DNA of 51,382 nt from a virus (Duplodnaviria > Caudoviricetes). The stretch spans positions 1 to 51,382 of IMG/VR virus record IMGVR_UViG_3300030060_003808, one strand, 5' to 3'. This document shows, in pieces, positions 48,824-51,382 of this stretch. Position numbers and translations under genes: made by a program. Numbering within the stretch: position 1 is the stretch's first letter; every line of letters begins with the position of its first letter. The notes beneath the pieces were generated by a model. It was not told where the DNA came from, did not search any database, and saw only the letters and a program-made list of their open reading frames with translations.

Positions 48824-49540
48824 TTATACGGAGTCTCTACCCGCATCTATATTAGTATAGTTTGGAGTTTGAGTTGTTGCAATGTCTGAGTAACTAGGAG
48901 TTTGTGAAGTGCTGACATCCGAATAGTTTGGAGTTTGGTCAGTATCAATCAATCCATACACTAAAATAAATCCTGGGCTCACTGTCACGCTTACTCCGGT
49001 AAGGCTTACAATGGCTCCGGCTTGTATTGATACAGAGCCAATCGAGCTGGACATTGATTGGCCATCCAGGGTAAATATCTCATTGTGGAAGACAGTAACC
49101 GATCCAATGGCCGAAGTTATGGCCACGCCTGTTGGTGTGACGTTGGCTTTGGCGCTGACTGTTGGAGCTCCCAAAGCAGAAGTAATCGCTTGGCCGCTGA
49201 CACTGACAACCGCTCCAGCAACGACGCTTGGAGAGCCTAAAGCAGAAGTGGCAGCAATGCCTGTTGGTGTGACGTTGGCTTCTGCGTCAACACTCGGAGA
49301 TCCGAGCGCAGAAGTAATTGCTATCCCGGTTGGGCTGACATTGGCCTCTGCATCGACACTTGGAGTTCCAAGTGCGGATGTAATCGCTATCCCGGTTGGT
49401 GTGACATTAGCCTCTGCATCGACTGTTACGCTGCCAAGAGCAGAGGTAATTGCAATACCAGTAAGATCTACAGATACGTTGACAACAGCGGGTTGTCCCC
49501 AAGGACCAGAACCCCAAGTAGATCGTCCCCAACCAGCCAT
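48824..49540 (-). CDS. Repeat-rich virion structural protein
   Basis: GWGRSTWGSGPWG N-terminus; 21-aa repeat V.PTGIAITSALG.PSVDAEAN. Confidence 0.7.
   Translation of the reverse strand: MAGWGRSTWGSGPWGQPAVVNVSVDLTGIAITSALGSVTVDAEANVTPTGIAITSALGTPSVDAEANVSPTGIAITSALGSPSVDAEANVTPTGIAATSALGSPSVVAGAVVSVSGQAITSALGAPTVSAKANVTPTGVAITSAIGSVTVFHNEIFTLDGQSMSSSIGSVSIQAGAIVSLTGVSVTVSPGFILVYGLIDTDQTPNYSDVSTSQTPSYSDIATTQTPNYTNIDAGRDSV
49110..49470. repeat. 63-bp coding tandem repeat (~5-6 degenerate units)
   Basis: Recurring GTTGGTGTGAC.TT.GC.TCTGC.TC.ACACT units encoding the 21-aa repeat. Confidence 0.8.
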
Positions 49541-49677
49541 TAGAGATTATCGCGTACTTCAACCAATAAGGTTTTGATCTTGGTAAGCTCCGCTTCGACT
49601 GTATCGGTTATGAATTTGTAATCCAAAAGATAGTCAATCTTAGCAATGGCCTCAATTATTTTTTGTTTATTAGTCAT
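49540..49677 (-). CDS. Hypothetical 45-aa protein
   Basis: Not in the track. MTNKQKIIEAIAKIDYLLDYKFITDTVEAELTKIKTLLVEVRDNL; TAATG coupling to the next gene. Confidence 0.6.
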   Translation of the reverse strand: MTNKQKIIEAIAKIDYLLDYKFITDTVEAELTKIKTLLVEVRDNL

Positions 49678-49681
49678 TGTG

Positions 49682-51049
49682 TTATTCTACCTCAAAAATA
49701 TTTATGTTTTTAGGATTGTAATTATTTATAAACTTTTGTAAACTTGAATCTATGGAAGAATTTAATACATTATATTTTACTTGGGAAGAAGGGCCAGCAG
49801 TATTAGAGCCTGTTGAAAATGGCGATATTGGGTTCTTCATTACGCCTGGCGAATCTAATTGGATGCTTGCTACACCAAGGCAAGTTGCAGACTTTTTTAT
49901 TGACGGCTCAGAGATGTCCAAAACAAATTTTGAAAATAAATTTGGCGGCATAGGCGAAGGCTTGCCAGAGCTCCCAGCTGTAACATAACCACCACTAGCA
50001 AACTTTTTGATGTCTTGATCGTAAAATCTTGGATCTATTTCTTTTTTTGCTTGCCCAAAAATACTTTGCATTTCCTCAACCAATATTTTTCCTTTTGTTC
50101 GAGCTTCTCTGTTGAGTTTTGCAAGGTCATCAACATTATCCGGCAAACCTTTTGGAAAAACAGATCTAAACTCCTCATAGGCTAAGTGTGTCTTGTTTAC
50201 CGCTTTCCACATTGGTTCAGTTATGACACCAATCTCTGCCACTAGGGTTTCACCATCAGAGCCAGTAAACTGAATGTTTAATTTACGATCTACAAAACCT
50301 TCTGGCTTTATTTTTCTGCCTTTATCAAAAACTTTATAATTTTTCTTCATCAAATTTACAAAGGCTTCTTCTTCGGCTGGTGTTTTGATAACAACTCTTG
50401 TTCTAAGTGAATCGGTTATTTTTGATATATCGCCTTTGTATTTGGTGTCGGTTTTTTCTACAATTCTAGGAACTTGTTTTATTGTTCCAAGTGGCTCTCC
50501 ATGTTTGCCCATTTTTCCAATAGATTCTGGTATTGTTGTTTTTAAATCTAACTGTCTTGCTAGATTGTCAATTTGTTGATTAAACTCCGGGGCCAGTTTT
50601 ACCGCAACACTTCGCATCTTGTGTGCTTTTCCTATGGTAGAGTGTTTTTTATCAAATAATTCACGTTGAACAAATGTCAAATTTTCTCTGCTTGATGTTT
50701 CGCCTAAACCGCCAATTCCTTTCCTAACTGCTGGCATCAATGCTCGTTTGAGCGGTTCTTTGCCGAATCTTGTCAGCTCACCTACAACGGGTATGGCTGC
50801 AAGACCGGATAATCCAGCAATCCCAAGTTTCATCGCGGCGGATCCGAGCTCACCCTGGCTAAAGTCACGATAAGCATCACGGCCGTATTTGCCAGCTGCG
50901 GCTATGTCCATGGCTACGCCTGGAGGAGTGAAGCCAGCTGCAATCTGGGCCAGTAGCGGTACATTTTGTTCGTAACCTTCAACAGCTTTATCAAGGAAAT
51001 CTCTCTGTGCCGCACCGCCATCTTGAAAAATGTCGATATCTCGATACAT
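49682..51049 (-). CDS. Putative virion-delivered effector with RelA/SpoT-like nucleotidyltransferase domain
   Basis: IKQVPRIVEK, ITDSLRTRV, GFVDRKLNI, AEIGVIT resemble Syn1-Syn4; pre-toxin-like leader (GFTPPG...AAIPVVG); N-terminal IDIFQDGG. Confidence 0.7.
   Translation of the reverse strand: MYRDIDIFQDGGAAQRDFLDKAVEGYEQNVPLLAQIAAGFTPPGVAMDIAAAGKYGRDAYRDFSQGELGSAAMKLGIAGLSGLAAIPVVGELTRFGKEPLKRALMPAVRKGIGGLGETSSRENLTFVQRELFDKKHSTIGKAHKMRSVAVKLAPEFNQQIDNLARQLDLKTTIPESIGKMGKHGEPLGTIKQVPRIVEKTDTKYKGDISKITDSLRTRVVIKTPAEEEAFVNLMKKNYKVFDKGRKIKPEGFVDRKLNIQFTGSDGETLVAEIGVITEPMWKAVNKTHLAYEEFRSVFPKGLPDNVDDLAKLNREARTKGKILVEEMQSIFGQAKKEIDPRFYDQDIKKFASGGYVTAGSSGKPSPMPPNLFSKFVLDISEPSIKKSATCLGVASIQLDSPGVMKNPISPFSTGSNTAGPSSQVKYNVLNSSIDSSLQKFINNYNPKNINIFEVE
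49716..49751 (+). promoter_or_regulatory. Internal antisense sigma70 promoter
   Basis: TTGTAA(49716)-N17-TAAACT(49739), 7 nt before ATG 49752; hexamers identical to the promoter at 905-939. Confidence 0.6.
49752..49988 (+). CDS. Acidic 78-aa protein nested antisense in the RelA/SpoT-like gene; candidate immunity protein
   Basis: Globular-looking, aromatic and acidic sequence with its own promoter, while the opposite-strand frame becomes Ser/Pro-rich here. Confidence 0.6.
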   Translation: MEEFNTLYFTWEEGPAVLEPVENGDIGFFITPGESNWMLATPRQVADFFIDGSEMSKTNFENKFGGIGEGLPELPAVT

Positions 51050-51080: not shown

Positions 51081-51382
51081 CTAATTTGAATAATCTCCGT
51101 AGCCAATATCATATTTTTCATCTTCCATATCAAGCAAGCCCTGGAATTTTCTCTTCAAGATTCTGTGAACCTTGTGATAAGGGAAATCTTCGTAGCCCGG
51201 GTGTGAGCTCTGAATCTGTCTGGCAATCTTTCTGGCCCCTAAACCTTTGGCTCTGAGCGCATAGATGTGTTTCAGCACTTCCTGTTCTTCCGGGATTGGG
51301 ACCAGCTTGGTTCTGCGTCTGCTGCCAGAGCCATCGTATTCTTTACGATAACCAAATGGTGTGTGGCCGCCAATCGAGTAGC
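51081..51382 (-). CDS. Serine recombinase/resolvase, C-terminal part (5' end beyond window)
   Basis: Open frame to the window end: YSIGGHTPFGYRK...LVPIPEEQEVLKHIYALRAKGLGARKIARQI. Confidence 0.75.
   Translation of the reverse strand, partial: YSIGGHTPFGYRKEYDGSGSRRRTKLVPIPEEQEVLKHIYALRAKGLGARKIARQIQSSHPGYEDFPYHKVHRILKRKFQGLLDMEDEKYDIGYGDYSN

Follow-up and report, generated by a model that had tools for sequence, protein, structure and literature searches.

A candidate immunity gene nested antisense in the tail of a Tas1-like protein gene of an uncultured marine phage

Alarmone-synthetase toxins with binder and hydrolase immunities are already known, and so are the polyvalent carrier proteins of phages. 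In the apk2-iapK-aph1 loci of MuF toxins in temperate phages, two immunities, a binder protein and an HD hydrolase, act against a (p)ppApp synthetase toxin (PMC12226406). Tas1, a type VI (p)ppApp synthetase effector, is neutralised by the small binding protein Tis1, as the title of PDB entry 6ox6 states. The polyvalent proteins of phages and conjugative elements join a conserved module to variable conflict domains, which include RelA/SpoT, ART-PolyVal and Zeta-type domains (PMC5512222). Here we describe a locus near the right end of a viral DNA of 51,382 bases, the IMG/VR virus record IMGVR_UViG_3300030060_003808, which was analysed over its whole length and is called the window below. A minus-strand open reading frame (ORF) of 455 amino acids, here named T, carries a predicted domain resembling Tas1 and the small alarmone synthetases (SAS), and a 78-residue gene on the opposite strand, here named S, is nested in the sequence encoding the C-terminal tail of T. 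Comparison with relatives shows by computation that purifying selection acts on both frames, and we regard it as moderately probable that S and T form a toxin–immunity-like pair resembling Apk2–IapK–Aph1 in a new dual-coding arrangement.

The likeness to Apk2–IapK–Aph1 (PMC12226406) is one of roles: the loci of relatives that hold an HD-like gene, S and T appear to provide the same three parts by analogy, namely a RelA/SpoT-type pyrophosphokinase domain on a carrier, a small binder and an HD hydrolase. Unlike that system, no MuF domain was found in T (the Pfam scan of T returned just a weak RelA_SpoT match at E <= 1), and S and the HD gene are convergent with the toxin gene instead of lying downstream of it on the same strand. 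Moreover, no relationship between S and known immunity proteins is detectable, and the window's clade has lost the HD gene and has S fully nested in antisense. Tas1 of the Tas1–Tis1 pair (PDB 6ox6) is, among solved structures, the best sequence match of the T core (E 1.4e-4) and stands among its top fold matches (E 4.3e-5, template modelling (TM) score 0.52 normalised by target). Tas1 is delivered by type VI secretion whereas T is a phage protein, and the Pfam family Tis1_ImmP matches 0 of 30 members of the S family.

As in the toxSAS systems FaRel, FaRel2, PhRel and CapRel, which also occur in phages (PMC7229694, PMC11782079), a toxin of SAS fold would be neutralised by a small cognate protein or a hydrolase. 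The toxSAS genes form co-directional bicistronic operons, in contrast to T, a larger multi-module protein in a structural operon, and this comparison runs only through weak RelA_SpoT matches. The genes of polyvalent proteins lie among virion genes, as does T, and these proteins are proposed to be packaged and injected (PMC5512222). T differs in that it carries just one effector domain in the window, and two in its variants of 560–640 residues, and its packaging would follow by analogy; the passages of PMC5512222 that were covered make no mention of a nested antisense partner. As in antisense overlapping genes of bacteria (PMC9927249, PMC7457138), an ORF lies opposite an annotated gene with coinciding wobble positions. 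In contrast to those cases, the embedded gene here appears to be the older and folded one and the tail of the host gene the newcomer, and the support is comparative (about 100 loci, in which T identity falls as low as 35%) instead of coming from expression data.

S begins with ATG at 49752 and ends with TAA at 49986–49988. It lies wholly inside the last 80 codons of T, and both frames are open over its full length. The two frames share their third codon positions, and position 1 of S pairs with position 2 of T. The stop codon of S pairs with the final base of G354 and the first two of Y355 in the ...KKFASGGYV segment of T, beyond which the T protein is rich in Ser, Pro and Gly. The S product contains 14 Asp and Glu residues versus 3 Lys and Arg, as well as 11 aromatic residues. 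The initial annotation, made from the letters of the window, had given the coordinates of the gene, a TTGTAA-N17-TAAACT pair in front of it, the position of its stop, the Ser/Pro-rich tail of T and the two open frames, and each of these is found in the sequence as described.

Judged from the window alone, this nesting is not beyond chance, and the support for it comes from relatives. Synonymous resampling of the window sequence gives a probability of 0.33 that the S frame is open given the T protein, and of 0.65 that the T frame is open given the S protein; long antisense ORFs are numerous elsewhere in the window. Among relatives the corresponding values per sequence are 0.05–0.5 for the S frame and mostly 0.06–0.25 for the T frame. 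Since probabilities of this order are not small, and since the sequences are related to one another, we did not accept open frames by themselves as decisive.

Metagenome protein collections contain 168 homologues of T, and the tail is present and conserved in 16 of 16 aligned homologues, including the forms of 560–640 residues. Loci were collected from the T alignment (37 viral), from the S alignment (80 from metagenomes) and from a distant S subgroup (23 viral), and a tally based on hidden Markov models was made over the 132 records that hold S, with duplicate contigs counted (48 sequences are non-redundant at 96% identity). S is intact in 132/132 records, with a GTG start in L023 and L108-110 and with two records cut at the contig end. 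A T-core ORF converges with S on the other strand in 119 of the 132 (119 of 125 when those truncated at a contig end are set aside). In 95 records an open T frame, joined to the T core, encloses S completely, and in every one of these both frames are open. A further 22 records show only a partial 3'-3' overlap of 29–89 nt, and in two (L025, L070) T ends at ...DPSFYD, with the motif deleted and the tail detached. The 13 records without a T core opposite S comprise seven cut at a contig end, four pairs of an HD-like gene with S, and two tail relics (L096, L098). Within the KKFASGGYV segment, K348, K349, F350, G353, G354 and V356 are invariant or nearly so, and in the deeper clade T ends 3–22 residues past the equivalent KF..GG.V.

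The four HD–S pairs without T (L067, L080, L107 and L113; for example L080:755-1276 and 1316-1531) may represent orphan immunity pairs, and in two of these four loci the frame antisense to S is broken. In L107 and L113 the HD–S pair adjoins a Sel1-repeat protein and membrane proteins, and in L098 (1071-1382) S with its remnant T tail is flanked by an AIPR gene of the abortive-infection type and an ImpB/UmuC-type gene. S has been called as a gene on few contigs (9 proteins), and the single-sequence probability that its frame stays open opposite T, given above, would also suit a spurious ORF that is open and conserved merely through a conserved T tail. We consider that explanation very improbable: the start and stop of S are kept in all 132 records, S persists where T is absent, detached or ends early, and the predicted model of S has a mean predicted local distance difference test (pLDDT) of 88 versus about 30 for the T tail. 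The proposal that the antisense ORF is a real gene, which a lack of conservation would have refuted, is thus borne out by the intact S in these records, by both frames being open in 95/95 nested ones and by a confident fold.

Because the third positions of both frames coincide, a site-class test on wobble positions is possible, in which the shared third positions are sorted by the codon families of S and T (4-fold or 2-fold degenerate). Transversion diversity was measured among sequences with identical flanking dinucleotides, in 46 non-redundant sequences. It is 0.395 at sites free in both frames (31 context-sites, of which 30 vary). Where the site is 2-fold in S and 4-fold in T, so that a transversion is non-synonymous only in S, it is 0.150 (22 context-sites, p = 4.5e-5 versus free sites); where the site is 4-fold in S and 2-fold in T, and the transversion is non-synonymous only in T, it is 0.224 (17 context-sites, p = 0.0014 versus free sites). 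The non-overlapped body of T served as a control (43 sequences). There the shadow-frame class has no effect, with 0.386 (n=66) versus 0.386 (n=107) and p = 0.45, and the real 2-fold sites have a transversion diversity of about 0.15 (0.149). The sites that are non-synonymous only in S equal these real 2-fold sites (p = 0.99), and those that are non-synonymous only in T differ from the control value (p = 0.0005) and from the real 2-fold sites (p = 0.039).

At the two Trp codons of S, the 4-fold sites of T are invariant (46/46, 22/22 and 8/8), which, together with the full constraint on sites non-synonymous only in S, argues further against a spurious S. Transversions that would create a stop in T are absent at 3/3 TA-family sites, at which C/T transitions are frequent. 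When codon families that contain stops are excluded, in a set of 22 sequences, transversions synonymous in S and non-synonymous in T still have a diversity of 0.251 versus 0.416 (p = 0.009); the value of 0.224 versus 0.395 from the 46 sequences likewise leaves these families out. The comparison of selection in both frames that the initial annotation had suggested, run here as this wobble test, therefore shows purifying selection on S, which is constrained like an ordinary coding sequence, and weaker selection on the T tail, at roughly 70% of the constraint on the T body. Nucleotide diversity in the overlap is 0.230 at position 2 and 0.269 at position 1 of S, an S-type pattern; both values are lower than those of the T body (0.378 at position 1, 0.289 at position 2). 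Between pairs of sequences, mean amino-acid identity falls from 0.62 in S to 0.57 in the tail and 0.51 in the T body.

That selection at the protein level is confined to S, the T tail being a passenger read-through kept free of stops to avoid polarity and its apparent constraint an artefact of small sample or context, is in our judgement unlikely, though far from negligible. The tail is predicted to be disordered, relatives exist without it (22 with partial overlap, two with an adjacent S), and the S-frame pattern dominates the overlap, position 2 of S being less diverse than position 1, the opposite of the T body. In addition, the selection signal for the T tail comes from 17 context-sites in related sequences. 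In the last 23 codons of T, moreover, transversion diversity at T 4-fold sites is 0.119, and 2-fold and 4-fold sites do not differ (p = 0.78), so this segment is conserved as DNA rather than as codons; a coding signature that per-position diversity had hinted at there was rejected by the site-class test. What this explanation does not account for is the depletion of transversions that are synonymous in S and non-synonymous in T, which persists without the stop-containing families and is seen against free sites, while the same geometry in the T body has no effect.

The initial annotation had also taken the tail after the GG motif to be dispensable or cleaved. Within the window's clade simple dispensability is not supported, since the frame is open in all nested records and under purifying selection, weaker than on the T body; across the family it agrees with the relatives that lack a long tail. 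These natural variants, L025/L070 and the whole clade with partial overlap, mean that the tail is not needed for the family's core function.

The model of T residues 120–345 has a pLDDT of about 80–90, and that of tail residues 346–434 about 30. The top Foldseek matches of T are small alarmone synthetases and Tas1 (E 8.9e-6 to 4.8e-4; TM 0.45–0.52, normalised by target); for residues 120–345 they include SAS1 (5ded, E 8.9e-6), RelP (6ex0, E 3.7e-5) and Tas1 (6ox6), at a probability of 1.00. When the profile of the T core is compared with PDB sequences, Tas1 comes out best, with TD..R, GE and H..YE..R aligned. D213, R216, D254-R255-K256, E272 and H288 of T are invariant in both clades and align to KDLARN, GEIQV and GHKYYE of Tas1; the assignment of T residues to named Syn motifs is in part our presumption. 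Taken together, the models indicate that T carries a Tas1/SAS-like domain, the fold class being shown by computation. No tail like that of T was found in the other RelA/SpoT-homologue proteins retrieved.

The N-terminal module of T (about 105–118 residues) is the sole part of T that loci L030-L037 share with it. In other marine viral contigs it is fused to Zeta_toxin (E 7e-16) or to ART-PolyVal domains (E 5e-10 and 4e-11), and from its sequence relationships it looks like a polymorphic carrier for conflict domains. T itself belongs to a structural or late operon and adjoins tail-fibre genes. The T variants of 560–640 residues (P0010, P0038, P0040; loci L012-L019) have an extra domain between ...DPxFY and KKFASGGYV; P0010 gives a weak ART-PolyVal match (E 0.007), and the tail and S are unchanged in these variants.

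S is predicted to form a compact β-sheet with two helices (AlphaFold, 27 sequences; pLDDT 88.1, predicted TM score 0.75). Its profile finds 50 clusters at E <= 1e-3 and 28 at E <= 1e-10 among 1.84 billion cluster representatives, mostly of 66–92 amino acids, and on these sequence matches S is a member of an undescribed family of proteins of about 75 amino acids. The family includes proteins with tandem double S domains (P0167, 275 aa; P0175, 223 aa) and one with an N-terminal coiled-coil-like extension (P0130, 173 aa). A lead from the protein atlas to Tis1_ImmP (score 0.77, with 25% of cluster members carrying the family) lay below the reliability level and was rejected.

A complex of T residues 120–345 with S, the kind of prediction against the RelA/SpoT domain that had been proposed at the outset, is predicted with a score of 0.83 (0.83, 0.82 and 0.83 in separate runs), and the best of three controls reaches 0.02. 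The mark used for such scores is reached by 58/80 solved complexes and 2/110 mismatched pairs, counts that hold roughly here because custom alignments were used. The runs share at least 95% of contacts, and the partner pLDDT is at least 88. The predicted interface comprises residues 21–27 and 39–54 of S, its most conserved part, and residues 202–203, 246–249 and 291–324 of T. According to this model, S most likely binds the catalytic domain of T.

In 11 of 23 partial-overlap loci S is preceded at 2 nt by an HD_4-like gene, and in 4/4 loci with a free S at 40 nt; the layout of the deep clade is an HD-like gene followed by S, with T convergent to both. The HD-like gene matches the hydrolase N-terminus of the NCBIfam model spoT_relA at E 1.1e-7, far below its 499-bit cut-off. 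The proposal of a toxin–immunity pair thereby gains the conserved pairing, the predicted binding and the hydrolase-like gene of relatives, with neutralisation as a presumed step. The predicted complex is itself silent on inhibition. Its interface omits the invariant catalytic-type residues D213, R216 and E272, the T gene lies in a structural or late operon beside tail-fibre genes, and S has no similarity to known immunity proteins. All this would also fit a real S gene whose product is a partner of T in another sense, such as a chaperone or adaptor for loading into the virion, or a regulator of a non-toxic synthetase that reprogrammes the host, the overlap being incidental to packing. We hold that alternative to be improbable, since S also occurs with the HD hydrolase-like gene and without T in 4/4 free-S loci, where orphan immunity pairs fit better than a packaging chaperone. 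In addition, the HD–S–T triplet mirrors aph1-iapK-apk2 (PMC12226406), and the closest sequence match of T among solved structures is the toxin Tas1.

In the reading that we prefer, a toxin–immunity-like pair, T would be a late-operon protein whose conserved N-terminal module carries interchangeable toxin-type domains. The effector here would be a Tas1/SAS-like nucleotide pyrophosphokinase domain, presumably active and toxic, and T might be delivered in the virion. The S product is predicted to bind this catalytic domain and would keep T inactive, acting as an immunity protein or antitoxin analogous to IapK and Tis1, with no detectable homology to them. The ancestral layout would be an HD-hydrolase gene and S converging on T, S and T sharing 29–89 nt at their 3' ends. 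In the window's clade, T would have lost its stop just past KKFASGGYV and now reads through the whole reverse complement of S to a new stop 4 nt before the next minus-strand gene, which leaves 237 nt encoding two proteins. S dominates the constraint on this shared DNA, and the T tail is an extension, predicted to be disordered, that is kept open under weaker but real purifying selection. The tail is kept most plausibly to hold ribosomes on the operon up to the next gene, a reason suggested by S being alone on the plus strand within a minus-strand operon and by the position of the T stop.

The simplest history suggested by the comparison of sequences is that full nesting is a derived read-through extension of T, because T of the deeper clade stops 3–22 residues beyond GG, the tail is disordered and antisense-like, and S is folded, widespread and able to stand alone. 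The opposite course, in which S would have arisen de novo by overprinting within T, was rejected, since S is folded, widespread and present without the T tail. A stronger version, to which we give somewhat less than even weight, is that both peptides are functional and that the nesting is an evolved toxin–antidote lock, with a protein sequence born de novo by antisense read-through of an older gene and then held under selection throughout a phage lineage. If so, recombination could not part the toxin from its antidote, and fully complementary mRNAs would down-regulate each other. The T tail could then serve as a packaging signal, as an autoinhibitory or processed pro-segment, or as a sensor.

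S may also have its own promoter, as the initial annotation supposed. A TAnnnT hexamer lies 7 nt before the start of S in 31 of 32 sequences compared, including S copies not overlapped by T, and in L027 it is a perfect TATAAT. The 4-fold sites of T are nearly invariant across this -10-like stretch. The TTGTAG/TTGTAA element is conserved in nested S copies and not in the HD–S context. Because the -10-like hexamer ends so close to the start codon, the sequence suggests a leaderless or near-leaderless transcript, and an own -10-like element would allow S to be transcribed apart from the late operon, in a lysogen for instance. What stands of the proposed promoter is therefore the kept -10-like hexamer; the scanner reported no site on the plus strand.

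Several further observations weigh against the preferred toxin–immunity reading. The Pfam RelA_SpoT family (PF04607) scores T at 14.6 bits (E 0.04, cut-off 27), and the best relative, L140, reaches 22.6 bits. The Syn4-like motif is E-I-G-V-I-T in the window's clade versus E-I-Q-I-K-T in the deeper clade, and from this divergence the activity of T may be altered or lost in the window's clade. S has no Foldseek match at E <= 0.001 in PDB or BFVD (the best BFVD match, at E 0.03, is an unnamed 73-residue viral protein), no family in Pfam, PHROGs or NCBIfam, and just a chance match when its profile is compared with PDB sequences; its binding to T is a model prediction. The match of the HD-like gene to Pfam HD_4 (E 1e-4 to 5e-4) does not attain the curated cut-off, and an HD gene is absent from the 95%-complete record of the window. 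As for expression, the promoter-like pair of S agrees with the consensus at 8/12 positions, below the scanner threshold, and the single site reported by the scanner in the region is on the minus strand and shares DNA with the motifs of S. One site was found versus 2.3 expected by shuffling, which is not significant alone. A single contig of an RNA library (0.09 of words) covers 49524–49641, outside S, and so speaks neither for nor against S; contigs also carry no strand information.

The window represents an uncultured marine phage with pelagiphage relatives and is close to complete, at an estimated 95%. It encodes a terminase, a portal, a major head protein and tail fibres, and nearly all of its genes are on the minus strand. 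The closest matches of its TerL among isolated phages have 58–62% identity, and the Pelagibacter phages HTVC027P and HTVC023P have 57–59%. In the isolated-phage collection, neither a blastn match to the region nor a tblastn match to T, S or a deep-clade T was found, and none of the named relatives has the S–T pair. The T locus is flanked by an integrase fragment and tail-fibre genes (Table 1). The integrase fragment, directly upstream of T, runs off the end of the record (PHROG 95, E 1e-9), which suggests that the phage is temperate and that T and S lie close to its attachment-site end. On the other side, a 238-aa repeat protein (PHROG minor tail, E 5.5e-5) has a 188-aa antisense ORF across its repeats, which is probably a by-product of the repeat composition. 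The minus-strand promoter-like site falls inside the end of T, upstream of a 45-aa gene and the tail-fibre genes. An Rfam search returned SNORA13 only, at the chance level of E 0.53, and no terminator-like site was found in 49300–50300.

Table 1. Positions of T, S and neighbouring features (window coordinates unless a locus is named)
Feature	Position	Strand	Remark
T, 455-aa ORF	49682-51049	-	N-terminal helical module, RelA/SpoT-type synthetase-like domain, KKFASGGYV, disordered tail
T residues 1-118, N-terminal module	50696-51049	-	conserved; elsewhere fused to other toxin-type domains
T residues 120-345, SAS/Tas1-like nucleotidyltransferase domain (predicted)	50015-50692	-	fold and profile matches
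T residues 348-356, KKFASGGYV motif	49982-50008	-	last T segment conserved in all clades
T residues 354-433, dual-coding tail segment, reverse complement of S	49752-49990	-	open in 95/95 nested records
Last 23 T codons and stop	49682-49751	-	overlies promoter-like region of S; ends 4 nt before next minus-strand gene
S, 78-aa gene including stop codon; candidate immunity protein or binder of T	49752-49988	+	ORF translation
-35-like TTGTAA	49716-49721	+	17 nt upstream of TAAACT; 4/6 consensus positions; weak evidence
-10-like TAAACT	49739-49744	+	directly preceded by TG; ends 7 nt before S ATG
Promoter-like TTTACA-N16-TACAAT	49715-49742	-	sole scanner report; 10/12 matches; shares DNA with S motifs
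Integrase fragment	51081-51380	-	
238-aa repeat protein	48824-49540	-	
188-aa antisense ORF	49011-49577	+	
Loci with the T N-terminal module on other domains	L030:2980-4182, L036:2953-5052, L037:2965-5997		

What is new in this locus is the S family, the convergent pairing and, above all, the fully nested antisense pair with purifying selection on both frames. A limited literature search, made on excerpts and short of a full survey, found no description of such a nested arrangement. To our knowledge, few antisense overlapping protein genes of phages and bacteria are well supported, and for most of these the support consists of expression data from a single strain. In the present case both frames have stayed open in about 100 loci, and the constraint on each can be told apart by a site-class test with a control. 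The direction of origin can be read as well, with an older folded gene apparently overprinted by read-through of its convergent neighbour, which makes the birth and retention of a protein sequence testable. Since standard gene callers annotate one of two such genes, partners of this kind would be systematically missed. Our analysis adds a family of about 75 residues as candidate inhibitors of Tas1-like alarmone synthetases, and a putative carrier module for phage effector domains of the RelA/SpoT-like, Zeta toxin and ART-PolyVal types. It also adds evidence of alarmone-type conflict systems in abundant uncultured marine phages related to pelagiphages.

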